Shown here in pieces: positions 632-23,030 of a stretch of 23,030 nt of DNA. Source of the stretch: a virus. The notes beneath the pieces were generated by a model. That model saw only the letters and a list, made by a program, of their open reading frames with translations. It ran no database searches and was not told the origin of the DNA. Location of the stretch: UHGV virus genome UHGV-0139916. One strand, written 5' to 3'. The position numbers were made by a program, and so were the translations under genes. How positions within the stretch are numbered: position 1 is the first letter of the stretch; each line of letters opens with the position of its first letter.

Positions 632-2800
<2,169 letters not shown>

Positions 2801-2937: not shown

Positions 2938-3063
2938 ATGTCCGACATCTACCAAATCACGTTAACCACCCAAACAGGCGAAACCTTTACGGGCAAGACG
3001 TCACGACGTCAGCCTGAGCTGGTTAATGGCTTTATGCAGCTGGCTACCGAGACGGGCGAGTAA
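2938..3063 (+). CDS. small hypothetical protein (41 aa)
   Basis: ATG 2938 with AAGAGG 6 nt upstream; translation MSDIYQITLTTQTGETFTGKTSRRQPELVNGFMQLATETGE. The track's longer 70-aa version (2851) lacks an RBS. No family recognised. Confidence 0.3.
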   Translation: MSDIYQITLTTQTGETFTGKTSRRQPELVNGFMQLATETGE

Positions 3064-3151
3064 ATAACTCCATTAGGAGAATGTGGAACCATTACACTTT
3101 GAGCCGTTAACTGATATTGATAAAGGTAAATAATATCTTGGTTAAGGTTTT

Positions 3152-3424: not shown

Positions 3425-3448
3425 TTTCAATCCAATTGAGACTTTGTC

Positions 3449-3976
3449 ATGGCACTCACCGACAAACAAGAGATGTTCTGTCGCGAGTACCTCATCGATT
3501 TAAACGCCACGCAAGCGGCTATTCGGGCGGGGTACAGCGCAAAGACAGCTAACCGTACCGCATCCGAAAACCTGTCAAAACCTGACATCAAGTTAAGAAT
3601 CGCCGAACTGAAAGCGCAACGCAATGATCTTGTTGGTATTAATGCAGAATATGTACTTAATCGCCTTATTGAAATCGACCAGATGGATGTGCTTGACATT
3701 CTCCTGCAAAACGGTGAGCTAAAGCCCATTAAAGACTGGCCTAAGGTATGGCGCACAACGCTATCAGGAATGGATGTTGTGGAGATGGTATCCGCAGATA
3801 GTGCCGCACTTCTGAAGAAAATCAAATGGCCAGATAAGGTCAAAAACCTCGAACTTCTTGGTAAGCATGTTTCCGTTCAGGCATTTAAAGAACAAGCTTC
3901 TCATGAGCTAACCGGCAAAGACGGCGGCGCAATCCAGATTGAAACATCACCGATGAGCACTCTATTCGGAAAATGA
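3449..3976 (+). CDS. terminase small subunit (Terminase_2-type)
   Basis: N-terminus MALTDKQEMFCREYLIDLNATQAAIRAGYS is the characteristic HTH start of this terS family. Sits immediately upstream of and overlapping the large terminase (ATGA). Confidence 0.85.
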   Translation: MALTDKQEMFCREYLIDLNATQAAIRAGYSAKTANRTASENLSKPDIKLRIAELKAQRNDLVGINAEYVLNRLIEIDQMDVLDILLQNGELKPIKDWPKVWRTTLSGMDVVEMVSADSAALLKKIKWPDKVKNLELLGKHVSVQAFKEQASHELTGKDGGAIQIETSPMSTLFGK

Positions 3977-5388: not shown

Positions 5389-5389
5389 T

Positions 5390-7588: not shown

Positions 7589-7678
7589 TTAACCCATAAC
7601 GTGCAATGGCTGTCTTTATGAGGCCTGGCACCCTATTGCCTTCCGATGGGCTGAACATCGAGTAAACAGGGGTAACAA

Positions 7679-8572
7679 ATGGACCAGATGGCAGAAAACA
7701 CACCAGAAGTTGAAATCGAAACCGATACATCAGAGCAGATTCCTGATGATGTCGAACTGGCTGAAGAAGTCGAAACAGAAGATGGCAGTGAGTCCTCCGG
7801 CAATGATGCAGAGGAAGCTACTGAAACTGATGACGACGAATCAGAACAGGAATTCTACTTTGGTGACGAAAAGCTGGATTCGCCAACCAGTGAAGATAGC
7901 GCAGAGCATGGGCTGGTAAAACACCTGCGCAAGACGATTAAAGAGAAAGACCGCGAGCTGAAAGAGCTGATGCGTCAGTCTCAGAAACCCGTCGAGCAGC
8001 AGCCGGTAATCACTCAACCACCGCGAATGCCAAAACTGGATGATGAGGACATCGGTTTCGATGAAGAAATCTATCAGCAACGCATGGCTAAGTGGGCAGA
8101 GGATAACGGAAAGTACCAGCAACAGGAGATGGCTCGCAAGCAGAAGGAGCAGGAGCTTCAGGCTGCCTATCAAGAGCGATTATCCAAATATCAGCAACGT
8201 GTTAAGGCTCTCAAAGTTCCTGGCTATCAGGAAGCTGAGCAGGCCGTACTCGAGGAAATTCCCATCGAGACACAAAACGCGATCCTGTTTGAGTCAGAGA
8301 AGCCGGAAATCGTTGTTCTGGCGCTCGGTCGCAACGCTGAACTGCGCAAGCAACTGGCAGAAGCTACCAACCCCGTAGCAATTGGTCGTCTGCTGGAACG
8401 TATCGAATCGAAGGCCAGAATCATGCCAAAAGCAAAAACCACGGCAGCCACAACCCCGACAGTTAAGGGGAGCAACGGCGCAGTAATCAATAACCTCGAC
8501 AAACTGAAAGCCAAGGCGCTGGAAACTGGTGACTGGACGCCGTATTTCGCCGCTAAAAAGGCAAAAAAATAA
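7679..8572 (+). CDS. scaffolding protein (297 aa), P22 gp8-like
   Basis: Highly acidic N-terminus and a charged helical body; located between portal and coat; size near P22 gp8. AGGGG RBS upstream. Confidence 0.8.
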   Translation: MDQMAENTPEVEIETDTSEQIPDDVELAEEVETEDGSESSGNDAEEATETDDDESEQEFYFGDEKLDSPTSEDSAEHGLVKHLRKTIKEKDRELKELMRQSQKPVEQQPVITQPPRMPKLDDEDIGFDEEIYQQRMAKWAEDNGKYQQQEMARKQKEQELQAAYQERLSKYQQRVKALKVPGYQEAEQAVLEEIPIETQNAILFESEKPEIVVLALGRNAELRKQLAEATNPVAIGRLLERIESKARIMPKAKTTAATTPTVKGSNGAVINNLDKLKAKALETGDWTPYFAAKKAKK

Positions 8573-8590
8573 CCTATCGGAGCATTAAGC

Positions 8591-9844
8591 ATGGCTAACC
8601 AATTAGCAAAAGACCTTGAAATCATGTTCGAAAACTACGTTGAAGGCTTTGAGGCCGCCTGCGTAGTTTCCCGTAACGCTAAAAAATTCCGTCCCGGTGA
8701 TACAGCAATGCAGCGAGCAGGTGATGTTCTGTATCGTCCGCAGCATTACCACATGAACATTGAGGAAGGCCTCGACCTCAGCAGCAAAACGCCAACAGCA
8801 CTGGTTCAGCGCCTTGTTCCTTCTGTGTTCAAGGAGCCGAAAAACATTCTGTACACTCTGGATGCGCGTGAAATGCGTGACCCTGAGCATAAAACTGAAG
8901 CTGGTCGCGCCGCAGGTATGCGCCTTGCTGCACAGATTGACTCTGACCTGATTTCCATGGTCACGCAGCGTGCTACTAACGTGATCACAATGGCTGACTC
9001 AACCACTGGTTCACAGGGCCGTGATTTGTGGAACTGTGCGGCAGGTATTGATGCCACCATGACGGCGATTGGTGTACCTCAGGGTATCAACCGTCGCTCT
9101 TTCTGGAACCCCTTCAACTACAAAGACCTTGCTGGCGAGCTTGGTCACCGTGCCTATGCTCAGGGCGCAACCCTGACAGCATACGAAAAAGCGCAGATCC
9201 CTCCGGTTGCGTCCTTCGATAGCTACAAGACCGATATTTCTGGTCGTGTTCCGAAGGGTACAGCAACTTCCCTGACGCTGGCGGCTGAACCTGCGCACAA
9301 GGTTGAAGCGAAAGATGCTAACGATATGCCAGTGGATAACCGACAGGGGACCATTACGGTATCTGCTGAAGGTTTGCAGGTTGGCGATGCGTTTACCATC
9401 GCAGGGGTGAATTCCGTACACCAGATCACCAAAGATACCACCGGGCAGCCGCAGGTATTCCGCGTTCTGGCAGTAAGCGGAACGACAGTAACTATCTCCC
9501 CGAAAATTCTGCCGCCTGACAACGCGGATGTCGCCAGCCGACCATATGCAAACGTTGATGCTAACGCGGCAAATGGTGCAGCAATTACCATTCTCAACAA
9601 AAATGCCGCACCGGCTAACCTGTTCTGGGCTGATGGTTCTGTTGAGCTGATGTACGGCAAACTGGCGTTCCCGACTGGTCAGGGTCCACAGGTAATGACA
9701 GCAACCACCGAGCAGGGCGCTACGCTGATCATGTCTTACGCCTTCGACCACATCAAAGGCGTAACCACTGCTCGTTTCACCACTCTGTATGGTTGCTCTG
9801 TACTTGTTCCTGAATATACGGGCATCGTTATTGCCGGGCAGTAA
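8591..9844 (+). CDS. major capsid (coat) protein, P22 gp5-like (417 aa)
   Basis: Position after the scaffold gene. Recalled P22 coat similarities (e.g. NLFWADGSVEL versus P22 NVFWADDAIRI). Followed directly by a strong intrinsic terminator. Confidence 0.9.
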   Translation: MANQLAKDLEIMFENYVEGFEAACVVSRNAKKFRPGDTAMQRAGDVLYRPQHYHMNIEEGLDLSSKTPTALVQRLVPSVFKEPKNILYTLDAREMRDPEHKTEAGRAAGMRLAAQIDSDLISMVTQRATNVITMADSTTGSQGRDLWNCAAGIDATMTAIGVPQGINRRSFWNPFNYKDLAGELGHRAYAQGATLTAYEKAQIPPVASFDSYKTDISGRVPKGTATSLTLAAEPAHKVEAKDANDMPVDNRQGTITVSAEGLQVGDAFTIAGVNSVHQITKDTTGQPQVFRVLAVSGTTVTISPKILPPDNADVASRPYANVDANAANGAAITILNKNAAPANLFWADGSVELMYGKLAFPTGQGPQVMTATTEQGATLIMSYAFDHIKGVTTARFTTLYGCSVLVPEYTGIVIAGQ

Positions 9845-9850
9845 TTTTGG

Positions 9851-9874
9851 TGGGGCTTCGGCCCCATTTTTATT
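9851..9874 (+). terminator. rho-independent terminator after the coat gene
   Basis: GGGGC-TTCG-GCCCC stem-loop (9852-9865) followed by ATTTTTATT, immediately 3' of the coat stop codon. Confidence 0.7.
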
Positions 9875-9885
9875 GGGAGAAGACA

Positions 9886-10074
9886 ATGGCACGAACAATG
9901 CTCTATAAGCCTGGCAACATGATCACCTGTGGTCAGTTTGCTGTCGATTACATCATTGTTGATGACGAAGAAGTTAAATCTCACCTGAAAAAAGGTTGGG
10001 TAAAAACTCCTGAAGAAACCGCAACGAAGCAAAAAGTGGCTAAGGCGGAAGAAGATGGTGAAAACGAAGGGTGA
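9886..10074 (+). CDS. small hypothetical protein (62 aa) between coat and gp4-like genes
   Basis: ATG 9886 preceded by GGGAGAAG; translation MARTMLYKPGNMITCGQFAVDYIIVDDEEV... Its 3' end overlaps the next gene by 20 nt. No counterpart recalled at this position in P22. Confidence 0.45.
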   Translation: MARTMLYKPGNMITCGQFAVDYIIVDDEEVKSHLKKGWVKTPEETATKQKVAKAEEDGENEG

Positions 10075-10516
10075 TCTCGTTCTAAAGGCTTTACGAAAAG
10101 CCGGGCTGTATTCCAATGCCACGTTGACAGATGCTGACCCTCAGGAAATTGAAGATGCAATTAATGACCTCGAAGACATGATGGCAGCATGGCAGGCGAA
10201 AGGTATCGAGCTTGGGTATCAGTTTGCTGATACAGAAAACGGCATCATGCCGTTACCTGACGATGATTCAGGCATCCCTGCATGGGCAAATGATGGCGTC
10301 GCTTTGAAACTCGCTGTGCAAGTGTGCATGGATAATGTCATTCAGCCGTCAGACGCTCTCCTTACCGCTGCTGACAGTGCATATCAAACAATCTGTATCG
10401 CTTTAACCAAAATACCACCACTTGAGCGGCGAAATGACATGCCTCGCGGTAGTGGTAACAAAAGCGCGTTTACGTGGAATCGGTTTTACATCGAGAAAGA
10501 TGATCCGAGTACGTGA
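10055..10516 (+). CDS. tail adaptor / head completion protein, P22 gp4-like (153 aa)
   Basis: N-terminus MVKTKGDLVLKALRKAGLYSNATLTD resembles P22 gp4 (MQIKTKGDLVRAALRKLGV...) as recalled; synteny. Confidence 0.85.
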   Translation: MVKTKGDLVLKALRKAGLYSNATLTDADPQEIEDAINDLEDMMAAWQAKGIELGYQFADTENGIMPLPDDDSGIPAWANDGVALKLAVQVCMDNVIQPSDALLTAADSAYQTICIALTKIPPLERRNDMPRGSGNKSAFTWNRFYIEKDDPST

Positions 10517-10525
10517 GGTGAATAA

Positions 10526-11944
10526 ATGCCGATTCAGCAACTTCCGCTCATGAAAGGCGTCGGCAAAGACTTTAGAAACGCCGACTATATCGACTATCTG
10601 CCAGTGAATATGTTGGCTACACCCAAAGAAATCCTGAACAGCAGCGGATATCTTCGCTCATTCCCTGGCATTGCCAAACGCTCTGATGTGAACGGTGTAT
10701 CTCGCGGCGTCGAGTACAACATGGCGCAGAATGCTGTTTATCGCGTGTGTGGTGGCAAGCTCTACAAAGGCGAAAGCGAAGTAGGTGACGTCGCCGGAAG
10801 TGGTCGCGTATCAATGGCGCATGGTCGAACATCTCAGGCGGTAGGTGTTAACGGTCAACTGGTCGAGTATCGCTATGATGGCACGGTTAAAACCGTCTCA
10901 AACTGGCCTACAGACAGCGGATTCACGCAGTATGAGTTAGGTTCGGTTCGTGACATTACACGCTTACGTGGGCGTTATGCGTGGTCAAAAGACGGTACTG
11001 ATTCATGGTTTATCACTGACCTTGAAGACGAATCACATCCTGACCGATACAGCGCACAATATCGTGCCGAGTCTCAGCCTGACGGTATTATCGGCATCGG
11101 AACATGGCGAGACTTCATCGTCTGCTTTGGTTCATCGACGATTGAATATTTCTCCCTGACTGGCGCAACCACTGTTGGTGCCGCTTTGTATGTCGCACAG
11201 ACATCGCTGATGGTGCAAAAAGGAATAGCCGGGACTTACTGCAAAACACCATTCGCTGATTCTTATGCGTTCATCAGCAATCCGGCAACAGGTGCGCCGT
11301 CTGTGTATATCATCGGCTCCGGGCAGGTGTCACCAATCGCCAGCGCGAGCATTGAGAAAATTCTCCGCTCCTACACTGCTGATGAACTGGCTGATGGCGT
11401 GATGGAATCGTTGCGGTTTGATGCGCATGAGTTGCTGATTATCCATCTTCCGCGTCACGTCCTCGTGTACGACGCATCTTCAAGCGCCAATGGCCCACAA
11501 TGGTGTGTACTGAAAACAGGCCTGTATGACGATGTGTACCGCGCTATCGACTTCATTTACGAAGGCAATCAGATAACGTGCGGCGATAAGCTGGAATCGG
11601 TGACCGGGAAATTGCAATTCGATATCAGCAGCCAGTACGACAAGCAACAGGAACACCTTCTGTTTACTCCGTTGTTCAAAGCGGATAACGCCAGATGCTT
11701 CGATCTGGAGGTGGAATCATCCACTGGCGTAGCTCAGTACGCCGACCGCCTGTTCCTCTCTGCAACCACTGACGGCATCAATTACGGGCGAGAGCAGATG
11801 ATTGAGCAGAATGAACCGTTCGTTTACGACAAAAGCGTTTTGTGGAAGCGAGTCGGGCGCATCAGGAAAAATGTCGGCTTCAAATTGCGCGTTATCACGA
11901 AGTCACCTGTCACTCTGTCTGGCTGCCAGATAAGGATCGAGTAA
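10526..11944 (+). CDS. tail hub protein, P22 gp10-like (472 aa)
   Basis: Synteny (after gp4-like, before the needle) and the same length as P22 gp10. Stop overlaps the needle start (TAATG). Confidence 0.85.
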
Positions 11945-12645
11945 TGGCTGATTCGAATCTCAACACCCCTGTTATTGTGCAGGCGACGCGGCTCGATACA
12001 TCAATCCTTCCACGCAATATATTCAGCCAGTCTTACCTGCTGTATGTCATTAATCAGGGGGCTGATGTCGGCGCAATTGCCGGGAAGGCAAATCAGGCTG
12101 GTCAGGGCGCTTACGATGCTCAGGTGAAAAACGATGAACAGGACGTCGAACTGGCTGATCACGACGCAAGAATCACCGCAAGCACAAAAGCGATAAATCT
12201 ACTTGAGGTCAGGTTAACAACTGCCGAAGGGAAGATAGTCGTACTGCGTAGCGATGTTGATTACTTGCTGGATGAGGTTATCGATATTCAGGCGCATCTG
12301 GTCACTGTTGACCAAAGACTGGATGACGTAGAAAACGATGTCTCTGGCATTAAGAGTGATTACGTATCGAAAACCGTAACCGAATTGCAGTCTCTTGAGT
12401 CACCGCTGGATGTAAAAACATCATATTCAGTTGATGGAATTCAGGTTGTTGGAGCAAGAAATACCGGATGGACTGCAGCCACAGGTACGCCACTTCTTGG
12501 CTCATTCAACGCTAACCAGTCATACACTGTCGGCACTACGTACACGCAATCCGAAGTCGCCGCTCTCGCTACAGGTTTGCAGCAGGCGCGGCAGCGTATT
12601 CTGGCGCTTGAAACGGCACTTAGATTACATGGGCTGATTGACTGA
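11944..12645 (+). CDS. tail needle, P22 gp26-like (233 aa)
   Basis: From ATG 11944: [77 protein letters not shown]... closely matches P22 gp26 as recalled, including the C-terminal ...LRLHGLID. The track's upstream extension (11842) is the 3' end of the gp10-like gene read in another frame. Confidence 0.9.
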
Positions 12646-13100
12646 TGATTACATTCAAACCAACGCGAAACATCGACCTGATCGAAGCAGTAGGAAATCA
12701 CCCTGACATCATCGCCGGGAGCAACAACGGTGATGGATACGACTACAAACCTGATTGCCGTTACTTTGAGGTGAACGTGCACGGTCAGTTTGGCGGCATT
12801 GTTTACTATCAGGAGATTCAGCCGCTGACATTCGATTGCCACGCCATGTACCTGCCAGAGGTTCGTGGATTCAGCAAGGAAATCGGGCTGGCGTTCTGGC
12901 GATACATTCTGACTAACACCACTGTTCAGTGTGTCACATCGTTCGCTGCACGCAAATTCCGCCACGGGCAGATGTACTGCGCAATGATTGGCCTTAATCG
13001 TGTAGGAACCATCAAGAAATACTTCAAAGGCGTGGATGACGTGACGTTTTACAGCGCCACACGCGAAGAACTAATCGACTTCCTGAATCACAGGAGATAG
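12645..13100 (+). CDS. P22 gp14-like protein (151 aa)
   Basis: Synteny between the needle and the gp7-like gene; start overlaps the needle stop (TGATG). Sequence not independently recognised. Confidence 0.65.
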   Translation: MITFKPTRNIDLIEAVGNHPDIIAGSNNGDGYDYKPDCRYFEVNVHGQFGGIVYYQEIQPLTFDCHAMYLPEVRGFSKEIGLAFWRYILTNTTVQCVTSFAARKFRHGQMYCAMIGLNRVGTIKKYFKGVDDVTFYSATREELIDFLNHRR

Positions 13101-13102
13101 CC

Positions 13103-13795
13103 ATGTTATATGCATTTAAGCTGGGCAGAAAACTGCGTGGCGAGGAACCTTATTGCCCTGAAAAAGGTGGGAAAGGTGGCAGTTCTGATAAAAGCGCAAA
13201 GTATGCAGCAGAAGCTCAGAAGTATGCCGCAGACCTGCAAAATCAGCAGTTCAACACCATCATGAATAACCTGAAGCCGTTTACTCCTCTGGCTGAGAAG
13301 TATGTCGGCAGCCTCGAGAACTTATCGTCTCTGGAGGGGCAAGGTCAGGCACTTAACCAGTATTACAACTCTCAGCAGTATAAAGACCTTGCAGGTCAGG
13401 CTCGCTATCAGAGTCTGGCGGCAGCGGAAGCAACAGGTGGATTGGGTTCCACCGCAACCAGTAATCAGTTAGCAACAATCGCACCAACGCTTGGTCAGCA
13501 ATGGCTATCTGGACAAATGAACAATTACAACAACCTGGCAAATATCGGTCTTGGCGCTCTTCAGGGGCAGGCAAACGCCGGGCAAACATATGCCAACAAC
13601 ATGAGTCAGATTTCACAGCAAAGCGCGGCGCTGGCTGCGGCAAACGCCAACCGACCGTCAGCATTGCAGCAGGGGGTTAGTGGTGCTGCATCCGGTGCGC
13701 TTTTGGGTGGTGGCATAGCCAGTGCTCTCGAGCTATCAACTCCGTGGGGTGCTGGTATCGGTGCTGGTCTTGGTCTGCTTGGCTCGTTGTTTTAA
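13103..13795 (+). CDS. ejection protein, P22 gp7-like (230 aa)
   Basis: Synteny and length (P22 gp7 about 229 aa); Gly/Ala/Gln-rich C-terminal half. Confidence 0.78.
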   Translation: MLYAFKLGRKLRGEEPYCPEKGGKGGSSDKSAKYAAEAQKYAADLQNQQFNTIMNNLKPFTPLAEKYVGSLENLSSLEGQGQALNQYYNSQQYKDLAGQARYQSLAAAEATGGLGSTATSNQLATIAPTLGQQWLSGQMNNYNNLANIGLGALQGQANAGQTYANNMSQISQQSAALAAANANRPSALQQGVSGAASGALLGGGIASALELSTPWGAGIGAGLGLLGSLF

Positions 13796-13805
13796 GGGGT
13801 AATCA

Positions 13806-15218
13806 ATGGCTACGTGGCAACAGGGTATTAATTCTGGTGGTTTTCTGGCTGGCATTGGTGCGCAAAACGAGAATGCGCCAAAGGCAAGCGACATTAACGC
13901 AACGCTTGGTCTGATCCGCGAAAACAATGAACTGGCTCGATCAGGTGCAAATAACGTTGGTCTGACCGCGTTACGTGGTCTGGCTGGAGTTGCTGATATT
14001 TATAAGCAGGAACAGCAACAGAAAGCTATTAGTGCGTTCAATAAGGTTCACGCTGATGCATGGGCTTCTGGTGATCCATCGGGACTATTTAAGTTTGCCC
14101 AGGAAAATCCAGCGTTTGTTGCACAGGCACAACAGGCGTTTTCCGGTCTTAATGAGCAGCAACGCAACGATATGGGCGATTTAGCCATGAGGGCTAACGT
14201 CGCTCTTTCTCAGGGACCGGAAGCCTACAGTAAATTCATTACTGACAACAAGGACAGGTTAAATCGCGTGGGTGCTAATGCTGACTGGATGATTCAGACA
14301 GGTATCCAGAATCCCGAGCAGCTATCACACATGCTGACTACTATGTCTCTCGGTGCACTTGGGCCAGAAAAGGCGTTTGCTGTTCAGGACAAGATAGCTG
14401 GTCGTGAGATTGACCGAGGCAGGCTGGCAGAGACAATCCGCAGCAATCAGGCTGGCGAGGCGCTAACAGCACGAGGCCAGAACATCACGATGCGCGGTCA
14501 GGACTTATCTGCTTCTACTACGCGACGCGGTCAGGATTTAGCGATGCAGAGAGCATCAATGAAAGGGGCGGTTGGGAATAATGAGCGCACAGTTCAACTA
14601 GCAGACGGAAGAACTGTAACCGTAGGCGGGAAACTTCATGGTGCTGGTGCTAACGCGTTCTACGAAGGTATAGACAATGAGGGGAACATGGTTCGCGTTC
14701 CTGCTGGCTCTATTGCTGCTCCGGCCACGTCGGCAGCAAGCGCGCAGAATTACGCAATGAAGAAAGATCTTGATGCAATTTCTGGTGCATCAATTGACGA
14801 TCTTGGCTTCATGACTGGCATTACAGGCTTTTCAGGTTCTCCTGCTCTTGGTGCAGATATTCGTAGCCGTGCATCTGGTGGTGATCAGAGGAAACTATAC
14901 AACGCTGCACAGCGAATCCAAGGAAAGATGCAGAATCAGGGCATTGCAGCAGCCAGAGACATGGGGGCATCCGGTATCAACACCGTTGCAGAAGCAAAGA
15001 TGTATTTTCAAGGTATGCCACAGGTTGATTTCTCAAGCCCTGAAGCACTGCAACAATCAATGCGCGACATTCAGCAATATACCGACAATTACAACCAGCA
15101 ATATAACGTTAATGTCGGTAATGGAGGGAAGAAATCATCAATGCAACAGCCGCCTACTCAGCAATCAGCAGGAGGTAGCTACACGTCAAAATCAGGCATT
15201 CAATTTACGGTGGAATGA
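13806..15218 (+). CDS. ejection protein, P22 gp20-like (470 aa)
   Basis: Synteny and length (P22 gp20 about 471 aa). Confidence 0.78.
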
Positions 15219-17056
15219 TGAAAGTAACTGCAAACGGTAAGACATTTACCTTTCCTGATGGTACGAGCACCGAAGATATTGGCACCGCCATTGATGAGTA
15301 TTTTGCTGGTCAGGCTGTTCAGCAACAAATAGTTAATCAGGCCAATAATGCACCAACACGGGAAGAACCATCATTGATGCAACAAGCTGGCGATTGGCTC
15401 ACTGGTGGTCAAAGTGCAGGGCAAATTGCAGAACAGGCTGGTCGTGGTCTGGTAAACATACCATTTGACGTATTACAGGGCGGCGCAAGTCTGATTAATG
15501 CAATCAGTCAGGGGCTTGGTGGCCCCAAGGTTTTGGATGATGTCTATCGTCCAGTCGATCGACCGACAGACCCCTACGCTCAAGCTGGAGAAACAATTGG
15601 CGGGTATTTAGTTCCAGGAGTTGGAACGGCAGGAAGCATGGCTATTGGATCACTGGCAGAAGCCGCGAACCAGAAAGGCGATTTCGCGCAAAATGCAGCC
15701 ATAAACGCCGGAGTTAACCTTGCCGCTCAGGGTGTTCTTTCCGCAGCAGCAAAGGGAATAGGGCGTGGAATAACTGCTATAAAAGGCGATATCGCGCCAG
15801 AAGTAGCGAAAAAAATTGCCACCTCAGAATCGATGGGCGTGACACCAATGACATCTGATGTTATCCCGCCGAAAAATGCTTTCACTCGCGGACTTACTCA
15901 GGATGCTGAGGGGGCTTTGCTCGGGACAGGCTCAAAGCGAGCGGAGCAATATGCAACGCGTAGTAAGCTGGTAAGCAATTATTTTGACCGTTTTGGTGAG
16001 TACAACCCTGATGATGTGGTGAAATCTCTGACCACCACGTTAAGGGGACGGAAGGAGGCCGCTGGCGCTGTTATCAATGACGTCACCAATAAAATGGGTA
16101 ATGCCGCAGTTGATACCACAAATACCATGAATGCTCTGAATACAGCGATCGCAAGACAGGAACGGCTTGGGACGTCTGCCAATCAAAGCCTGCTTACATC
16201 CTTGCGTAACCTACGTGAAGAATTAGCAAACCCTGCAACTGATTTGGATGTTACGTTTGATCTCCTACGTCAGCACAGAACAGCATTTAGATCTAATGTT
16301 CAGGGGGATGCTATGGTCTTCCCCAACCAGGCAAAAGCAGCTACCAATATGGTAGAGAATGCAATGTCAAAAGACCTTCGTAACGCAGTTGCAAAAAACC
16401 TCGGTGCATCAGACGCAGCAAAATACCTTAAAGCAAATTCCGATTATGCAAACGTTTATAATAAGGTGCTTAATAAAAACATTGCTAACAAGCTCAACAA
16501 GGCAAGCAGTGAAGCCAGTCCTGAACTTATAAATACTGTTGTATTAAGCAGAAAACCATCTGACGTGAAACGAATCTGGAGCGCATTGGATGATAAAGGG
16601 AAAGATGCTATGCGTGCAGCTTACGTCAGCAAAATAGCGGAAAAGGCCGGTGACTCTCCAGCCAAGTTCATCACGGAAGTTAATAAGCTGAAATCTCAGT
16701 CAGGCGGTGAAATTTACAACACTATTTTTTCTGGAAAGCACATGAAAGAACTTGATGCTCTTCATGAAGTTCTACAGCAAACAGCAAGATCAGACACCGC
16801 AAATGTAGTAACTCAGACGGGGCAATCGCAAGCCAACAGGATAAGGACGATTGGCGCAACTACGACTCTTGGCGTATCAATGGGGCTTGAGGCTGGTTTC
16901 GGTGCAATGATGCGCTTGTATGAATCCAAAGCAGCAAGGAATGCGCTCTTACGTCTGGCAAACACTAAAGCTGGAACGCCAGCTTATGAAAGAGCGCTAA
17001 ATCAGGCGGCTACTGCCGTGCGCCCGCTCTTAGTTAACGAAGCTACCCGGCAGTAG
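15215..17056 (+). CDS. ejection protein, P22 gp16-like (613 aa)
   Basis: Synteny and length (P22 gp16 about 609 aa); ATGA start/stop overlap with the preceding gene. Confidence 0.78.
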
Positions 17057-17078
17057 CACTGTAAGCCAAGGACGGCAT

Positions 17079-17573
17079 TTATTTTATAGTTTTTATGAAT
17101 TCTTTATTAAATCCCTTCGCTTCTCCGGGGTATCTTCCGAAGACAATTTTTATAAAAACAGAAAAAATAAAGATAGCAAAGCTTAACAACAATTGCAGTA
17201 TCATTGGAACCCAAAGAACTACAGGCTCTATATTCATGAAACCAAATATTCTTCCGGCGATCATGGCGAAGTACCACACTGTTATCAGCAAACTTAGTGG
17301 CATATGAATTACTGATATTACCAATCCAAGAGCATCAGTAATTCTGTTTTCAAATTTTTCAGGGGAAAACTTTTCTTTAAGGTAATTCAGTGCGCAGGCC
17401 TCATTCTCTGGATTTTCAGCATTTTTCCCTATAGCAATAGAAATCTCAGATATCCTTGATTCAATTCTTTTACGTTTAATAAAACTAGAAAAAAAGAACC
17501 ACGCAATCTGCAACCCTATCCCCAGAAATAGAGTTGCGGCAACTAGCACAGCGTAACTCATAGAATCAGACAC
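17079..17573 (-). CDS. AT-rich integral membrane protein (about 160-164 aa, 3 predicted TM helices); candidate superinfection-exclusion protein at the P22 sieA position
   Basis: Minus-strand ORF. AAGGAGG lies 5 nt upstream of an in-frame GTG (plus 17571-17573); ATG at 17561 is the alternative start. Three hydrophobic segments ([21 protein letters not shown]; [26 protein letters not shown]; [28 protein letters not shown]). The SieA analogy is positional only. Confidence 0.6.
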
Positions 17574-17603
17574 ACCAACCTCCTTAGTTTTGCGCAGGAT
17601 ACC

Positions 17604-17969
17604 ATGAAAAAAGTTAACATTGGAAACGTACCAAAGATGCTCGTTCCGCTCTTTGAGAGCGGTACAATTGTGTTTTGTAGAGACTTTCCAGAATGGCAAC
17701 GCCTGCATCAAAAACTTGGCGTTGACGTGCATGACTCGGACGCCAACGGAGCGTCTCATACAATGAGTAGCGAGAATGGTGTTTTGCATGTGATAGGCGT
17801 GTTCAATGGCAAACTATCTACTATTGCCCATGAGTGCGCTCACATGGCATTCGATATCTGCTCAAGGGTAGGTGTTGATGTTGAACCAGGAAGAGCCAAC
17901 GAGACTTACTGCTACTTAATGAGCAGGCTTGTTGAGTTCTGCGAGCGACATATCAAAAAGCCGGAGTGA
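17604..17969 (+). CDS. hypothetical protein (121 aa) with an HExxH motif ([11 protein letters not shown]); possible small zincin-like metalloprotein
   Basis: ORF divergent from the membrane protein, weak AGGA RBS. The single HECAH motif is followed by acidic residues. No family confidently recognised. Confidence 0.5.
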
Positions 17970-17974
17970 CCGGC
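17955..17974 (-). terminator. stem-loop between convergent genes; terminator for the minus-strand mnt/YjzC-like transcript
   Basis: GCCGG-AGTGA-CCGGC (17960-17974) with AAAAA on the plus strand just 5' (TTTTT on the minus strand after the stem). The stop codon of the plus-strand gene lies in the loop. Confidence 0.5.
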
Positions 17975-17981
17975 TTGATTA

Positions 17982-18161
17982 TTACTTTTTGCTGTCTGGA
18001 GTTCGCTTATCCAATACCCAGACATGACCTGGCTTTGTTGTTGGTGGAAGCCTTTCGTTGTCCTTGACGGTGGCAAAATTGTCTTTCTTACCGCCGCGTG
18101 GGCCAACTTCTTGGTATATTCCGCCGTTTTTTCCTGTGTTTTCACCTGGTTTTTTCGCCAT
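17982..18161 (-). CDS. small Gly/Lys-rich protein (59 aa), YjzC-like
   Basis: ATG at 18161 with GAGGT 5 nt upstream; MAKKPGENTGKNGGIYQEVGPRGGKKDNFATVKDNERLPPTTKPGHVWVLDKRTPDSKK. The family assignment is from memory of the YjzC pattern and is unverified. Confidence 0.5.
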   Translation of the reverse strand: MAKKPGENTGKNGGIYQEVGPRGGKKDNFATVKDNERLPPTTKPGHVWVLDKRTPDSKK

Positions 18162-18254
18162 GATATACCTCAACATACACCCGTTATTGGGCGATTAAAT
18201 ATTGATCTCATTTTATAAGTAGTCAATATGGCCCAAGTAAATGCAAAAATTAAC

Positions 18255-18275
18255 CCACCGTCAGGTGGTTTTTTT
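18255..18275 (+). terminator. plus-strand intrinsic terminator embedded in the 3' codons of mnt
   Basis: CCACC-GTCA-GGTGG followed by seven T on the plus strand. The same bases encode ...KKTT-stop of Mnt on the minus strand. Confidence 0.45.
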
Positions 18276-18512
18276 GTACAAATCCTTCAGCGTATCAAAC
18301 ACCATCTTCTTAACAAGTTCGGACTGCTCATCAGCGATGCGTTCTGCATCGTCTCGATAGCCTGAAATTTTGGATGGCCTTGATACAGCATCAGTCACTA
18401 TCTGAACTAATTCTGAATTAAGAGAGCAGCCATTGGATTTGGCTCGCTGTTTTAGTTTTTCCTTTAATTCGTAAGGTAGCCGCAGATTAAATTGCGGGTC
18501 ATCTCTTCCCAT
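18261..18512 (-). CDS. mnt: Mnt repressor (ribbon-helix-helix, Arc/MetJ fold), 83 aa
   Basis: MGRDDPQFNLRLPYELKEKLKQRAKSNGCSLNSELVQIVTDAVSRPSKISGYRDDAERIADEQSELVKKMVFDTLKDLYKKTT is near-identical in length and sequence to P22 Mnt as recalled (same C-terminal AERLADEQSELVKKMVFDTLKDLYKKTT). Confidence 0.9.
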   Translation of the reverse strand: MGRDDPQFNLRLPYELKEKLKQRAKSNGCSLNSELVQIVTDAVSRPSKISGYRDDAERIADEQSELVKKMVFDTLKDLYKKTT

Positions 18513-18577
18513 TCTTGATGCCTCGCTCTTGTGAGTGGATCGGCATCTTATTATCTGCTGGTTGCATCCTCAATAAT

Positions 18578-18588
18578 ACCACGGTGGT
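18578..18588. promoter_or_regulatory. Mnt-operator-like palindrome ACCAC-G-GTGGT in the mnt/tailspike intergenic region
   Basis: An 11-bp sequence with perfect 5-bp inverted arms, about 70 bp upstream of the mnt start. Its CCACGGTGG core matches what I recall of the P22 mnt operator. Confidence 0.4.
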
Positions 18589-18931
18589 CGTATTTTTTGA
18601 TTGATAATGAATCACTGCGGCGATTCCTTGTATTTGGAGCAAATTAAATGACAGATATTATAAATAGGAATTGTTATTTAATAATGTTTGAAAATAAAAA
18701 TCATGGACGATAGGAATAAAGGTAGTACTTGTTTTTATTTTTGTAAGTGACGCATTAAGCGCATAAATAATATGCCTGTTGATCAAGATTCTTGAGTATT
18801 GTAAAATAATCGTTTTGTTCATGTTGCATGGTTTTTAAATGAATAGAAGGTTATTTTTCAAAACAATTGCATCTTTGTCTGCAGTCATTCCGTTTTCTTC
18901 AATATCTAAATCTTCAAACAGGATGACTAAT

Positions 18932-21430
18932 ATGCCTAATATAACTCCAAATGTTGTGATAGGTATGCCGTCGCAACTCTTCACAATGGCTAGTTCTTTT
19001 AAAACCGTAGCAAATGGAAAAATTTATATCGGTAAGATTGACACAGATCCGCTAAATCCAGAAAACCAGATTCCAGTATATCTGGAACGAGAAGATGGTA
19101 CTTATGTTCAGGTGCCACAGCCAATCGTTATCAATGCTGCTGGATACCCGGTATACAACGGACAGATTTCCAAGTTCGTAACTGTGCAAGGTCATTCTAT
19201 GGCTGTTTATGATGCGTATGGAGCGCAGCAGTTCTATTTTCCTAACGTACTGAAGTATGACCCGGATCAGCTACGGCAGCAATTAGAAGACCCGGATGGT
19301 GCTAAAAAATATTCCGAATTGCAGATTGCACGATGGCGTGATGAAACAGATCCACGTGGCTGGGGAGCAAAAGGTGATGGCATTGCGGATGATACACAGG
19401 CATTTGAACAACTGGAAGATTATGTTACGTCTATGGTTGTTGATATGCGAGGTAAAACTTATTTTACCTCCAGAACGTTTTTCAGGAATACCTATATTAA
19501 CGGGAAATGGTTGGTTGGAGGGAAAGTCATTCCTGTTAATGGTGAACTAGTTACAAGCAAGCGACCTGCATGGGACATTAATGCCATTGGACATGAGTCT
19601 AATGCCGCTATACGGTTTATACCAATTGCTAATGGTCGCGGACAGATAAGAACATTGCAAACTTTTGCATATGATCCTGTAAGCAGAGCTTATTATTCCA
19701 ATCACAATACAGAAATAGATGGAAACCCTACTACTGTTTCTGTCTGGAATAAATATTCTGCTGATTCAAAAATTAAAAATACATCTTCTGATTTTATGCT
19801 TCCTGAGGACAGGCTGGGTCATCAGGGAATAGCGGTACAGAATATAGATAATACGATTAAGTTATGGACTACAGCACCAGATACACCGGCAGGCTCTACT
19901 GCCCATACTGACTTTGATTTTTCTGTAGGTGGTTCACATGGGGTTGTTAGATTTTCCTGGAGGAGCAACTCCGAGGGGGAAATAGATTCTCCTGAAATGT
20001 TTAGGGTTGTAGAAGGAAATCGTACAGCGGGTAGTTCAACTACTCCGACTATTACATTAGACGGAAAATGGATGATTATCCGTTTCACCGACAATGGCGA
20101 ATACAATAAGCAAACGTTTCGTGTATTTTCCACTGATATTTTTGATAAACCCGGTGATTATTCCGCCCTGTGTACTCATGAGTTTACTCTTCAACTTTCA
20201 CAAGTCGGTGGTGATGAAACAACATCACTTAATGGATTTTGTTCTGATGGAGCACATCTGTATATGTATTGTGGAAATACTAAGTTTGGGCAGACTCAAT
20301 ATTTATCAAGTTGTGATCTGTTGGGGAATGATGTGCAGAAAGCCATTTCTAATTTGGGTGATACGGATTTACCTAGAATTATTGGCTCTACCCCTACCTT
20401 CCGCGAGTCAGAAGGGATGCATTTTGTTGATTACGATGGCGTTCTTTATCCATCGGTAACAATAGTATCTGAACATTCTGATGTTATGGGGGCAACCAGA
20501 CGTACCATTCTGATTTATGCGCTTGGTGCAGGAGATAAAAGAACGCTATCTCTACCATCTAAAGAAATATGTATCTCTGATAATCCAGAGGCGGTTCCTC
20601 ATGTAATTTATTCAGATAATACAACCTGGGAACAAAACTCACCTATAAAAGCACTAAAGTTCAACAACGAGCAAGGAACCGGTTTGCTTTATGAATGGCA
20701 GAGAAAAGGCGTTGGTTATTTTCAGATGTATATGAGTACCTCTAATGTAGCATTAATGGCTGCGAATGGGGCTGATTTACATCTAGGAAGTAATAATGTC
20801 TGGAGATGGAAAGTAAGTCCAAATGGTCACTGGCATCCTTATCTGGATAATTCTTACAGTGTTGGTGTACCAGATAACAGGCCAACTCAGATTTATGCTG
20901 TTTCAGGCTCAATAAACACCTCAGATGGTAGGGAAAAAAGCGACCCGCTAACAACGAGTGAACTCAGTCTGAATATGTCCCCTGGTTATGAAGGTGATGC
21001 AATTTTGGATGCATGGGGAGATATCAGGATCGTAGCTTTTCGCTGGCTTGAGGCTATCAGGGAAAAGGGAGATGGTGCCCGCTGGCATTTTGGTGTCATA
21101 GCACAACAGGTGCGAGATGCTTTCCTCGCTCATGGGATTGATGGGACCCGGTTTGGCCTTCTCTGTTACGATGAATGGGATGATAAATACGAGCCAGTGA
21201 TGGCGGTCAGGACGATTACTGAAGTTGTGGATGGTGTCGAAATTGAGAAGGAAGAAGAATACGAAACAGAAGAGCGAACTCTGGTACGCAAGGCCGGAAA
21301 TAGGTGGGGTATCCGTGCTGACCAGTGCTTATGGCTTGAGTCTGCTTATTTGCGTAGAAGAATCGAAAAAATAGAGTCACGTCTTGCAGCGATTGAAAAA
21401 AAACTTTTTGACAATGAATGCAAATTATAA
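18932..21430 (+). CDS. tailspike (832 aa): P22 gp9-type head-binding N-terminus, AT-rich beta-helix-type receptor-binding/glycanase domain, C-terminal intramolecular chaperone (S74-type) domain
   Basis: From ATG 18932, [50 protein letters not shown]...[13 protein letters not shown]...NVLKYDPDQ aligns with the P22 gp9 head-binding domain as recalled. [15 protein letters not shown] motif typical of pectate-lyase-like beta-helix proteins follows. SDGREK at 20921-20938 matches the endosialidase-type autocleavage motif. Confidence 0.9.
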
Positions 21431-21573
21431 TTCACAGGCAGGGGCGCATATATGTTAAAATATGGTTTGTAACTTGATTTGTTAGATAAGATATGGCTAT
21501 TGATAGTTTTAATTATATCCCATATGGGATGACTACTTTTTACTTTTAATACGAGTGTTTTATCTCTGTATGA

Positions 21574-21615
21574 ACATCGCCATGTTGGATAGTTGATCGT
21601 TCAACATGGCGATGT
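21574..21615. terminator. 14-bp perfect inverted repeat between convergent tailspike and glycosyltransferase genes (candidate bidirectional terminator)
   Basis: ACATCGCCATGTTG (21574-21587), a 14-nt loop, then CAACATGGCGATGT (21602-21615), lying between the two convergent stop codons. Confidence 0.45.
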
Positions 21616-21659
21616 ATAGTAAAAATGTTTTTATAAGAGGATTGATTGTTTTTTATTTA

Positions 21660-22793
21660 TTATTTGTTAAGAGCTAAGACATCTTTTCTGAAATTTTCAT
21701 GATCTCCATCCAGAAGAAATTGTGCAAGGGATTTGAATTTGTTATAAATCAAGTCAAAATTAATAAGGTCTGAATGTGCAGCTAATGACTTATACATCAT
21801 TTTGAAAAAAAATCTTTTATCATTGTCTGGCACTTTTTTGTTTTTTTCAATGGCAGCTAGATGTTCAATGCAAATAACAACCCAAGCACTAAACATCTTT
21901 ACTTTTTCATTGGTTTGTTTTTTGGATATTAAAATGTAATTTAATCCGCATTGTAAAACAAAAATTCTATTTTCTACTGGGAAACTAACTTTAGAAAGAT
22001 GTTGTTGATCGTGCCCGTTAAGAATATAATACTCCTTATCTGATAAAACTGAAACTGTATTAGATACGGTTAATGCATGACATGAAAAAATCATGTCTTC
22101 GTAAACAGGTATTGATGGGTTGAATAAAACCCCATTATTAATAAGCAATTCTCGCTTAAATAACTTGAAAATTTTCAGTGATCTGAATAAATGATTTTTG
22201 ATAATATCTGCTTTGTTAGCATTTTTTCTGAATGCCCGCACGGGTACTCCTCGCCCTGTAGATGATGCTTGCTTAAAATATACAATATCGCTATTATTTT
22301 TATCTGCAATATGCAGCCCATCATAAAGTAACTCTGAATGAATTGCATCATCTGAATCTAGAAAGAAAACATAACGTCCTTTGGCTGCTTTTATTCCTTC
22401 ATTGCGTGGAGCTGAAGCATTTCCGGAGGGGATTTCCCTGCGAATTACACGCCGGTTTATATCCGGTGCAATAAAATACTCAATTGCTGCAACACTTTTA
22501 TCTGTTGAACCATCATCAATAAAAATCACTTCAAATCTGTTTTTATCTAGCGTTTGTGAATTAATAGACTTAATACATTCAATAATTAAGTTTTCTCTGT
22601 TATGAACAGGTATTATAATTGAAATGTCAAACTTATTATTTGAATCAATAGTATGTATAACATTTTTTATTTTATATAAGGCTGAATGGATGGCTATATC
22701 TAAAATAGCTTCAGATATAATGTTTTCTTTTTTAATGTTGCCTTTTATGTTAAAATATAAACAATTAGTACGAAGAACAAAATCCACGCTCAT
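21660..22793 (-). CDS. family-2 (GT-A) glycosyltransferase (377 aa from ATG 22793), AT-rich
   Basis: Motifs SIIIPVHNRENLIIECIKSINSQT, FIDDGSTDKS and FFLDSDD (DXD-type). No C-terminal TM segments, so not GtrB-like. The ATG abuts a tetranucleotide repeat and there is no Shine-Dalgarno sequence. Confidence 0.85.
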   Translation of the reverse strand: MSVDFVLRTNCLYFNIKGNIKKENIISEAILDIAIHSALYKIKNVIHTIDSNNKFDISIIIPVHNRENLIIECIKSINSQTLDKNRFEVIFIDDGSTDKSVAAIEYFIAPDINRRVIRREIPSGNASAPRNEGIKAAKGRYVFFLDSDDAIHSELLYDGLHIADKNNSDIVYFKQASSTGRGVPVRAFRKNANKADIIKNHLFRSLKIFKLFKRELLINNGVLFNPSIPVYEDMIFSCHALTVSNTVSVLSDKEYYILNGHDQQHLSKVSFPVENRIFVLQCGLNYILISKKQTNEKVKMFSAWVVICIEHLAAIEKNKKVPDNDKRFFFKMMYKSLAAHSDLINFDLIYNKFKSLAQFLLDGDHENFRKDVLALNK

Positions 22794-22980
22794 GGCTGGC
22801 TGGCTGGCTGGCTGGCCGGCTGGCTGTGAAATCTAATGCAAATTTTACCCCTTTATATTCGAAGTCAATAACGAAGCAGTTCTCATTGTATAACCATGTT
22901 TTTTTTATGTGATCACGCAGTGTTGTTTTCTCAAAGAACTCAACTATATTTTCAGAAATAGCAGTAATATCAGTTTTCAT
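22765..22980 (-). CDS. 5' reading-frame segment (71 aa) that runs through the repeat tract and stops 9 codons later; probable out-of-frame N-terminal part of the glycosyltransferase gene
   Basis: ATG at 22980 with GAGGT 6 nt upstream. Translation ...DFTASRPASQPASHERGFCSSY, where ASRPASQPAS is encoded by the repeat. Its frame is offset from the glycosyltransferase ORF so that removing one 4-nt unit would fuse them. Confidence 0.4.
   Translation of the reverse strand: MKTDITAISENIVEFFEKTTLRDHIKKTWLYNENCFVIDFEYKGVKFALDFTASRPASQPASHERGFCSSY
22794..22825. repeat. tetranucleotide repeat tract (GGCT)5-GGCC-(GGCT)2 on the plus strand, i.e. (AGCC)n on the coding strand
   Basis: Direct reading of 22794-22825: eight tandem 4-nt units, one of them a GGCC variant, ending immediately 5' of the glycosyltransferase ATG on the minus strand. 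Confidence 0.95.
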
Positions 22981-23030
22981 TGTACAACCTCTATTGTTAG
23001 CAATGTTTATTGGTATTCAAAAATAAGGCG

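Follow-up and report, generated by a model that had tools for sequence, protein, structure and literature searches.

In phage P22, the slot between genes 16 and 9 holds immunity region I; this highly variable region changes quickly and has been termed the 'ant moron', and hkcC and 59a are listed as genes without known function (Villafane et al. 2008, PMC2629481). The same slot carries sieA, the gene for superinfection exclusion, in all sieA-carrying prophages that were closely examined by Leavitt et al. (2024, PMC10883804). SieA types differ from each other by about 75%, and the motif FxRYPxEAxxFNK is conserved in all of them (PMC10883804). The P22 protein (Hofer 1995), which is of type A, has three transmembrane (TM) segments according to published TMHMM predictions and was found exclusively in the inner membrane, and mutations escaping it map to gp16 and gp20, among them gp16 P546S/G532W with gp20 G350D (PMC10883804). 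A fragment with sieA and 85 bp of upstream DNA suffices to lower P22 plating by at least 10^7-fold, and P22 SieA expressed in E. coli excludes CUS-3 to 10^-8 or below and HK620 only to 0.33 (PMC10883804).

Here, we analysed the accessory block at this position in the virus genome UHGV-0139916. The whole stretch of 23,030 nucleotides is called the window, and all coordinates refer to it. The features discussed below are as follows.

17079..17573, minus strand: sieA, type A superinfection-exclusion protein of 164 aa (phrog_7745, P22 identity, TM segments and motif)
17604..17634, minus strand: promoter PsieA, within the first 31 nt of hkcC (position-for-position homology with P22-pbi)
17604..17969, plus strand: hkcC, 121-aa cytoplasmic protein, gene oriented like the late operon (P22/HK620 identity; phrog_1365)
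17958..17976, both strands: bidirectional hairpin terminator (t-mnt / tORF59A) between the convergent hkcC and orf59a
17982..18161, minus strand: orf59a, 59-aa basic all-β YjzC-type protein (P22 identity 57/59; phrog_3202)
18198..18226, minus strand: putative orf59a promoter, TTGACT, 17 nt, AATATT (consensus scan)
18255..18268, both strands: terminator-like hairpin overlapping the mnt stop codon, with seven T after it on the plus strand (terminator scan)
18261..18512, minus strand: mnt, 83-aa ribbon-helix-helix repressor (Pfam Arc and Repressor_Mnt)
18545..18573, minus strand: weak Pmnt-like promoter (TTGAGG, 17 nt, TAAGAT) where P22 has Pmnt (TTGAGA, 17 nt, TATCAT)
18576..18590, no strand assigned: candidate Mnt operator variant, ATACCAC-G-GTGGTCG, adjoining the Pmnt-like site

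Results

The accessory block is a previously described P22 locus

The block is flanked by gene 16 (15215-17056) and by a tailspike gene with the P22 head-binding domain (18839-21430). Both gp16 and gp20 of the prophage are of P22 type, with 76% and 85% identity, respectively. Between 17000 and 18359 the window was 96.4% identical to phage P22 at the DNA level, and the P22 homology stopped at 18359. The encoded proteins shared 152/164 (SieA), 120/121 (HkcC), 57/59 (Orf59a) and 62/83 (Mnt) residues with their P22 counterparts. The 96% DNA identity to P22 and the presence of the ORFs in hundreds of prophages mark them as genuine genes rather than chance reading frames. An earlier note on this DNA had correctly placed the block in the variable accessory slot of P22-like phages, and had gone on to propose that its genes differ from P22 sieA-hkcC-mnt. 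They are the same genes, and the homology searches suggested in that note placed them as ordinary P22 sieA/hkcC homologues.

With the order sieA, hkcC, orf59a and mnt, the interval very probably represents the P22 'ant moron' minus arc-ant-sar, in a P22-like prophage of E. coli type. It shares with P22 immunity I the slot, the gene order and the terminators, but lacks arc, ant and sar, has a degraded Pant, carries a Mnt N-terminus and an operator of the other specificity type, and has roughly 190 bp of AT-rich sequence separating the remnant of a gene 9 start from the tailspike gene now present. When P22 Arc and Ant were used as tblastn queries, the sole match was Arc cross-matching Mnt itself, and Rfam gave zero matches across the whole window, so neither a sar-like RNA nor another known RNA was detected there. 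The accessory block is an ordinary, already known locus rather than a new defence cluster; its analysis re-identifies a textbook region, which as a finding matters little. The interpretation in the earlier note was partly supported and wrong on this main point.

The membrane protein has the sequence features of type A SieA

Counted from the furthest ATG, the minus-strand ORF at 17079 encodes 236 aa. We rejected this reading because the phrog_7745 (SieA-like) profile (E 9e-108) spans only the last 164 residues (73-236, the full 164 positions of the profile), because a GTG at 17573, the start annotated in P22, lies 5 nt after a strong Shine-Dalgarno sequence, AAGGAGG, and because 85 bp of upstream DNA is all that the published, fully active sieA fragment contains. 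The 164-aa protein, without the N-terminal extension seen in types B and C, showed three hydrophobic segments in a Kyte-Doolittle plot (about residues 5-29, 78-106 and 115-140), which agrees with the three-TM membrane protein seen in the earlier note once its length is corrected, and the FxRYPxEAxxFNK motif was present at residues 145-157. By its P22 kinship, three TM segments, motif and gene 16-gene 9 position, the protein is a type A SieA on sequence criteria, and the suggestion that this membrane gene serves superinfection exclusion was borne out at that level.

The allele resembles P22 sieA in its GTG start, Shine-Dalgarno sequence, three hydrophobic segments, cytoplasmic motif, position after gene 16 and PsieA sequence, and the gp16 and gp20 accompanying it are of P22 type. 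Twelve substitutions, mostly in the loop joining TM1 and TM2, separate it from P22 SieA. Its host is apparently E. coli and not Salmonella, and the allele is closer to a protein of an E. coli prophage annotated 'superinfection exclusion protein A' (162/164 identical). In the P22-pbi record (AF527608), the homologous 31 nt carry the label 'P sieA'; all of them are identical here, and the surrounding DNA (17574-17640) matches P22 at 66 of 67 positions. PsieA scored no match in a generic sigma-70 consensus scan.

In the lysogen, sieA would be transcribed from its own weak promoter PsieA, and the product would reside in the inner membrane with its three TM segments, where it would stop the DNA of incoming P22-like phages from crossing by interfering with the gp20-gp16 ejection-protein conduit. 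This exclusion mechanism is established for P22 SieA; for the window allele, we infer it from 93% identity and the conserved regulatory DNA. The prophage should protect its host from most P22-like phages at the injection step, a point of relevance to phage typing or therapy of such E. coli. The earlier note had called both of its candidate genes uncharacterised. That description still fits hkcC, which has no known role (PMC2629481), but not SieA: where it resides, which phages it targets, which mutants escape it and that it acts in E. coli have all been published (PMC10883804). The plasmid challenge proposed in the note has already been carried out for a 93% identical sieA allele.

mnt is retained with a variant operator

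The minus-strand mnt followed by a YjzC-like small gene, as read previously, was recovered in the scans. Mnt matched Pfam Arc (PF03869; E 8e-20, 70.9 bits) and Repressor_Mnt (PF11423; E 2e-18, 66 bits), both above the cut-off. Compared with P22 Mnt, the C-terminal tetramerisation part was identical, while the DNA-binding N-terminus had diverged and was of the E. coli 'Gln6' type. The candidate operator is an imperfect palindrome centred on G18583; related E. coli prophages have a perfect one, AAGACCAC-G-GTGGTCTT, from which each half-site here departs at a single position. Across 20 loci and the window, Gln6-type Mnt always occurred with AGACCAC/ATACCAC half-sites and His6-type Mnt, as in P22, with GGTCCAC, and there were no mixed cases. 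The pairing of Gln6 with AGACCAC versus His6 with GGTCCAC offers a clean example from nature of a repressor and its operator varying together. A literature search on the His6 specificity of Mnt yielded nothing useful.

The Pmnt-like site was read from the sequence and the P22 alignment; it agrees with the consensus at 8/12 positions and lies under the scan threshold. In the same reading, the plus-strand Pant hexamers of P22 were not conserved. The mnt product would be a ribbon-helix-helix repressor with variant operator specificity, and because ant is gone, the role left to it could only be autoregulation, perhaps together with modulating how much transcription runs on into the tailspike gene.

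This copy of mnt may be decaying. Position 29, in the conserved G-R-S turn, is Arg in P22 and two E. coli relatives, and also in 34/35 sequences read from other loci; Cys was found only in the window and in one other locus (L025). Because of Cys29 and the two half-site mismatches in the operator, the mnt part is possibly non-functional. It is quite conceivable, though we put it at somewhat under an even chance, that the whole mnt end is what remains of a decaying immunity region I, which has lost ant, arc and sar and in which Mnt, left without a target, is drifting. The absence of arc and ant, the eroded Pant hexamers, the Cys29 substitution and the operator mismatches are all consistent with such decay, and HK620, with mnt and ant remnants only, would represent its end state. 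However, the mnt ORF is intact with well-scoring Pfam domains, the Pmnt-like promoter and the operator remain in place, and the mnt-only arrangement is widespread (ST64T, L, ST160), which suggests a retained use such as control of gene 9 read-through (PMC2629481). Decay at the mnt end is compatible with the exclusion role proposed above for sieA.

HkcC is probably a minimal zincin

The divergent 121-aa HExxH protein noticed earlier proved to be HkcC, which is encoded on the plus strand, just 30 bp away from the divergent sieA, and carries H76-E77-C-A-H80 and E100. It is 120/121 identical to the hkcC ORF of both P22 and HK620 and belongs to the unknown-function profile phrog_1365; the divergent placement beside the sieA/hkcB slot and the bidirectional terminator are also shared, with no notable difference. 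Scans of HkcC itself against Pfam, NCBIfam and PADLOC assigned no family, a PDB sequence search gave matches only at E values of 0.09 or above, and a literature search found no functional study of hkcC, orf59a or YjzC.

The HkcC family comprises 517 clusters, and among 94 diverse homologues (23-73% identity), H76, E77, H80 and E100 were the sole invariant columns. An AF2 model (pLDDT 89) predicted the HExxH motif on a long helix and the Glu on the next helix, with the helices packed on a small β sheet. Structural neighbours in BFVD include proteins named SprT-like, and SprT-like was reached at E <= 1e-4 by 3/94 of the HkcC relatives. HkcC has the HExxH motif, on a predicted helix, in common with zincins (thermolysin-type gluzincins and SprT-like PF10263), and its invariant Glu lies 20 residues past the second His; H146 and E166 of thermolysin have the same His-Glu spacing. 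HkcC is probably a minimal zincin metallopeptidase of the gluzincin type, judging from these residues. Lying in the sense of the late operon, hkcC is predicted from its orientation, motifs and models to make a small zinc metallopeptidase in lytic growth. The invariant zincin site gives a sharper description of a protein annotated for more than 20 years without a function. For the proposal that this protein is a defence candidate, we found no supporting evidence, with no match among the PADLOC models.

orf59a is a putative independent transcription unit

Orf59a resembles the YjzC family (PF14168) in its length of about 59 aa and in the motifs GGIYxExGPRGG and LPPT, but scored 20.8 bits against the Pfam profile, under the 25-bit gathering cut-off. 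We collected 119 homologues with 59-97% identity, several of which (60-80% identical) are named 'YjzC family protein' in their source, a name used by both NCBI and UniRef. The label explains nothing, because the family has no known function. The AF2 model (pLDDT 86.5) contains three β strands, and a profile built from the Orf59a alignment found no match in the PDB.

A Klebsiella oxytoca prophage carries TTGAGA-17-AATATT upstream of its orf59a homologue, in the same layout with a different spacer sequence, which points to 18198..18226 as a candidate orf59a promoter. At the other end of the gene, the hairpin at 17958..17976 has a folding energy of -12.3 kcal/mol on the minus strand, where UUUUU follows, and of -11.4 kcal/mol on the plus strand (z-scores -3.2 and -2.6); the hkcC stop codon sits in its loop, and a one-base loop difference separates it from the P22 hairpin. 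The earlier note was right that a shared terminator lies here, although it had been annotated before: P22-pbi lists it as t-mnt, HK620 as the bidirectional tORF59A. The second hairpin, at the mnt stop codon, reached -12.9 kcal/mol on the plus strand (z -3.4), and the homologous site is annotated tMNT in HK620. On the strand opposite the late operon, orf59a would form an independent promoter-gene-terminator unit that probably makes a small β protein in the lysogen. Orf59a, which has likewise been annotated for more than 20 years without a function, can now be described as a widespread and very conserved small β protein with its own putative promoter and terminator.

Convergent linkage of hkcC and orf59a

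The convergent pair of hkcC on the plus strand and the 59-aa gene on the minus strand is kept in varied settings, with 43-65% identity for HkcC and 61-80% for Orf59a where checked. It lies just upstream of the tape-measure gene in siphovirus tail clusters of Klebsiella oxytoca, Xenorhabdus and two metagenome contigs (L009, L093, L190 and L192; the Xenorhabdus tape measure was inferred from a 948-aa ORF), next to a mnt-like gene in Proteus penneri (L094), and, in a Pasteurellaceae prophage (L095), after putative early genes and before a 510-aa putative large terminase, both guessed from the ORF map without family scans. A further metagenome contig (L006) and a P22-like locus (L191) also contain it. 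In the loci compared, hkcC invariably ran in the direction of the adjacent structural genes, and the 59-aa gene invariably against it. When an alignment headed by the Klebsiella homologue was used for a second IMG/VR scan, aimed at non-P22 contexts, the same P22-type loci were recovered.

This conservation is what could be expected if the two genes formed one cassette, in which the orf59a promoter supplies Orf59a in the lysogen and the HkcC zincin, made only under late read-through, targets Orf59a itself or a host factor on which both act; convergent transcription would also silence orf59a in lytic growth. We consider such a cassette unlikely. Orf59a homologues often occur without hkcC (Yersinia prophages, Salmonella bongori, Rhizobium, Sphingopyxis), and HkcC relatives in Arsenophonus and Moraxella, as well as Orf129-type paralogues (<=42% identity), have no such partner. 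Moreover, hkcC of HK620 adjoins an orf59a with an in-frame stop, and the adjacency could merely reflect joint horizontal transfer. The stronger idea that orf59a always requires hkcC was rejected, as orf59a stands alone in several contexts. It is slightly less likely still that the two genes make up a mobile module in phage-host or phage-phage conflict, possibly with a lysogen factor that is removed or counteracted by a lytic-phase protease. The convergent linkage is a modest new lead rather than a finding, and it is testable.

Composition and distribution of the slot

The GC content was 35.4% for sieA, 46.2% for hkcC, 46.7% for orf59a, 42.1% for mnt and 32.5% for the mnt-to-tailspike spacer, compared with 49.8% for positions 1-15214 of the window. 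The lower GC described in the earlier note is genuine, but the dip is strong only in sieA and the spacer. None of the five scanned proteins matched PADLOC-DB 2.0 at E <= 0.1; SieA evidently has no model in that database. The low GC, the known quick exchange of genes in this slot, and the other genes found at the sieA position in relatives (hkcB in HK620 and E. coli ZH063, a Rap1a-domain gene in L191) might suggest that the prophage swapped sieA-hkcC for a new exclusion or defence cluster, yet this is highly improbable, being ruled out by the 93-99% identity of the proteins to the P22 sieA, hkcC and orf59a products and the matching DNA, and the zero matches to PADLOC defence models speak against it as well. 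Many other P22-like phages also lack arc, ant and sar. Six complete E. coli genomes contain the four-gene layout itself, about 98% identical, and it was present in about six of 80 IMG/VR loci.

Identity of the accessory block with the P22 locus

Between the gene 16 homologue and the tailspike gene, the prophage carries four small genes with the following layout.

15215-17056: gene 16 homologue
ending at 17079, minus strand: membrane-protein gene (sieA), a 236-aa ORF with the gene proper of 164 aa
17604-17969, plus strand: hkcC, 121 aa
17604-17634: PsieA promoter (31 nt), by homology with the P22-pbi annotation
17958-17976, both strands: bidirectional terminator hairpin, by terminator scan and folding
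17982-18161, minus strand: orf59a, 59 aa
18261-18512, minus strand: mnt, 83 aa
18839-21430: tailspike gene

A megablast search of window 17000-18900 against phage records matched 17000-18359 to phage P22 (AB426868 13194-14554) at 96.4% identity, and dozens of P22 relatives matched the same DNA. The P22 features under it are annotated as sieA, hypothetical proteins and mnt, and protein identities to P22 were 152/164 for SieA, 120/121 for the hkcC ORF, 57/59 for Orf59a and 62/83 for Mnt. The earlier note set the block against P22's sieA-hkcC-mnt-arc-ant and proposed the membrane protein and the HExxH protein as uncharacterised exclusion or defence candidates. The contrast was wrong for these four genes, as all four are P22 homologues, and the two candidates are ordinary SieA and HkcC relatives, the outcome that the note itself had named as counting against its idea. 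What it described was accurate and its reading held only in part: hydropathy analysis gave three hydrophobic segments in the sieA product, HkcC carries the motif H76-E-C-A-H80, and GC was low (35.4% in sieA and 42-47% in the other three genes, against 49.8% in the structural genes). The shared terminator that it placed at 17955-17974 was also confirmed, since the 17958-17976 hairpin scored as a terminator on both strands; it is t-mnt in the P22-pbi record and the bidirectional terminator tORF59A in HK620, and differs from P22 by a single loop base. The window is identical to P22 across the 31 nt annotated as PsieA in P22-pbi. An Rfam scan of the window gave no family match, and tblastn with P22 Arc and Ant returned only a cross-match of Arc to Mnt. 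The P22 block genes missing from the window are only arc, ant and sar. The locus is already known, being the mosaic previously described as the "ant moron"; what the analysis adds is a somewhat sharper description of hkcC, of orf59a and of a possible link between the two.

The structural genes had their best matches in the E. coli P22-like phages phiv205-1 and CUS-3 (about 96%). Six complete E. coli genomes carry the four-gene block with about 98% identity; the first gene is annotated there as "superinfection exclusion protein A", and its product is identical to the window SieA at 162 of 164 residues. When 80 IMG/VR loci carrying this hkcC were classified by layout, about six were window-like and 13 had a type A sieA, the others having hkcB or nothing at the sieA slot; mnt was of either P22 type or window type, and ant was variably present or absent. 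The sieA slot is exchangeable: it holds hkcB (109 aa) in some relatives (E. coli ZH063, HK620) and a Rap1a-domain gene in one, the P22-like locus L191. Rap1a is a type VI immunity-like fold. Where the slot differed, hkcC, orf59a and mnt were retained, with the break point in the 30-bp sieA/hkcC gap.

SieA is predicted to block DNA injection

The 236-aa ORF was rejected as sieA because phrog_7745 (E 9e-108) spans only its last 164 residues, a GTG at 17573 comes 5 nt after AAGGAGG, and the 495-nt version is annotated in both P22 and RefSeq. The mechanism of SieA has been published, so the membrane protein is not an uncharacterised candidate (PMC10883804). A single copy of sieA, together with the 85 bp preceding it, lowered P22 plating at least 10^7-fold; SieA is located exclusively in the inner membrane, with three predicted TM segments, and its exclusion resembles loss of ejection proteins (PMC10883804). 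For escape, phages needed three substitutions, located towards the C-termini of gp16 (P546S, G532W) and gp20 (residues 338-350), and P22 SieA in E. coli excluded CUS-3 to 10^-8 or below and HK620 poorly (0.33) (PMC10883804). The window SieA has the motif FxRYPxEAxxFNK, common to all SieA types (PMC10883804), together with P22 topology and the P22 promoter, and these shared features argue strongly that it would keep P22-like phages from injecting their DNA across the inner membrane.

The gp16 and gp20 that the prophage itself encodes belong to the P22 type (76% and 85% identical). A Thr in its gp16 (window 16835-16845, residue about 550) aligns with P22 gp16 Pro546, which was changed to Ser in each of the eight SieA escape mutants described (PMC10883804); gp16 G532 and gp20 T338, T341, A348 and G350 are unchanged. 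The Thr might slightly lower self-exclusion.

HkcC resembles a minimal zincin

HkcC is the one genuine unknown that the earlier note had flagged, and no evidence was found that it is a defence gene. It had no match in Pfam, NCBIfam or PADLOC. An exhaustive profile search placed it in a family of 517 clusters, mostly of 110-130 aa proteins, and in an alignment of 94 relatives (23-73% identity) only H76, E77, H80 and E100 were invariant. The signature is therefore HExxH plus a Glu 20 residues past the second His, spaced as in thermolysin. The AF2 model (pLDDT 89) places the two motifs on successive long helices, which pack against a small β sheet. Similarity to thermolysin by sequence was weak (E 0.09), as was the top Foldseek match, the SPRTN protease domain (E 0.2), and three relatives touched Pfam SprT-like, but all pointed in one direction. 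In the viral structure library, many uncharacterised phage proteins share the fold (E down to 1e-9), and a small number of them bear the label SprT-like or metalloprotease. On the invariant residues, the model and these weak matches, HkcC is probably a minimal cytoplasmic zincin.

orf59a and its recurrence beside hkcC

Orf59a is modelled as a small three-stranded β domain (pLDDT 86.5) and scores just under the Pfam YjzC threshold. Its 119 homologues (59-97% identity) come from enterobacteria, Rhizobium, Sphingopyxis, Maricaulis and others, several named "YjzC family protein", and the literature searched reported no function for this family. A promoter-like site, TTGACT-17-AATATT (18226-18198), lies upstream, its layout retained with a different spacer sequence in a Klebsiella oxytoca prophage, and the 3' end of the gene is the bidirectional terminator. 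With its own putative promoter and terminator, orf59a would have a classic moron structure.

HkcC relatives at 43-65% identity are followed directly by a convergent 59-aa gene in varied phage settings; where the two were compared, this gene is an Orf59a homologue (61-80% identity). In siphovirus-type tail clusters the pair immediately precedes the tape-measure gene, as in K. oxytoca (L009), in Xenorhabdus (L093, where a 948-aa ORF is taken for the tape measure) and on the metagenome contigs L190 and L192. In Proteus penneri (L094) it adjoins an mnt-like gene, and it is also present on metagenome contig L006 and in L191. It also occurs in a Pasteurellaceae prophage (L095), whose upstream ORFs read as early genes and downstream 510-aa ORF as large terminase, labels guessed from the ORF map with no family scans. 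In all eight loci, hkcC shares the orientation of the adjacent structural genes and orf59a has the opposite one. Against an obligatory partnership speak the frequent occurrence of orf59a on its own, the lack of such a neighbour beside the HkcC relatives of Arsenophonus and Moraxella and the Orf129-type paralogues in phages L and ST64T, and the in-frame stop codon of HK620 orf59a. The recurrence is a lead rather than a result, and a linkage of the two genes is possible.

Stand-alone orf59a/YjzC homologues (L104-L108) often lay on the opposite strand, in prophage accessory slots or beside defence-type genes. Yersinia prophages, for example, have one between the lysis genes and terminase; in Salmonella bongori GmrSD_N and HEPN genes are close by, in Rhizobium the neighbour is DndB, and in Sphingopyxis it is an HTH and Peptidase_M78 pair.

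Mnt and its operator

The mnt gene is intact and matched both Pfam domains. Mnt agrees with P22 over its entire last 25 residues; the differences cluster in the N-terminal part that binds DNA and include Gln for P22 His at residue 6, reportedly base-contacting and specificity-determining from the work of Sauer and Susskind. Operator half-sites are ATACCAC/AGACCAC in the window type versus GGTCCAC in P22. Wherever both were readable (20 loci and the window), Gln6 accompanied AGACCAC-type (AGACCAC/ATACCAC) and His6 GGTCCAC-type operators without exception. Mnt and operator thus co-vary naturally (18261-18512 and 18576-18590; 20 related loci).

The near-universal Arg of the G-R-S turn is replaced by Cys in the window (Arg29-to-Cys), shared only with IMG/VR locus L025, while the other 35 Mnt sequences read have Arg. 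The P22 Pant hexamers are not conserved, and the operator has one mismatch per half-site relative to related prophages; a weak Pmnt-like site, TTGAGG-17-TAAGAT, is still present at 18545-18573. The lost Pant hexamers, the Cys and the operator mismatches suggest that the mnt end of the prophage is decaying.

Other features of the window

Within 18636-18838, what is left of the canonical gene 9 start (GGAG, then ATGACAGATATTA at 18648) opens just a 21-codon ORF and is separated by about 180 bp of 30% GC DNA from the present tailspike ORF. The same junction occurs in E. coli ST131-type prophages (ZH063) and phage JEP4, and looks like the result of an exchange in which the incoming tailspike module carried its upstream DNA along. 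The tailspike ORF could start 28 codons upstream of a conserved 12-residue sequence, and this extension (18839-18922) resembles a twin-arginine signal peptide. The long start is annotated in JEP4 and the short one by PGAP (ZH063); no Shine-Dalgarno sequence precedes the long start, and the extension, though odd, is probably not translated. In the 863-aa tailspike, residues 32-144 form a P22 head-binding domain and the C-terminus is an intramolecular chaperone domain (Peptidase_S74); the stretch in the middle gave weak endosialidase-like and β-propeller matches. The receptor-binding part is therefore not related to its P22 counterpart.

The prophage contains an IS21-family element upstream of its packaging genes (913-2714, minus strand), with an IstA-like transposase at 1692-2714 (rve and HTH domains). 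Its IstB-like ATPase appears split, as 913-1356 matches only profile positions 103-238 and a further ORF spans 1408-1695. Downstream of the tailspike, 21431-23030 has a very low GC content (28-36%) and carries a minus-strand family 2 glycosyltransferase at 21660-22793 (E 7e-31); this segment may represent cargo for serotype conversion, or it may mark where the prophage ends beside a host polysaccharide cluster.
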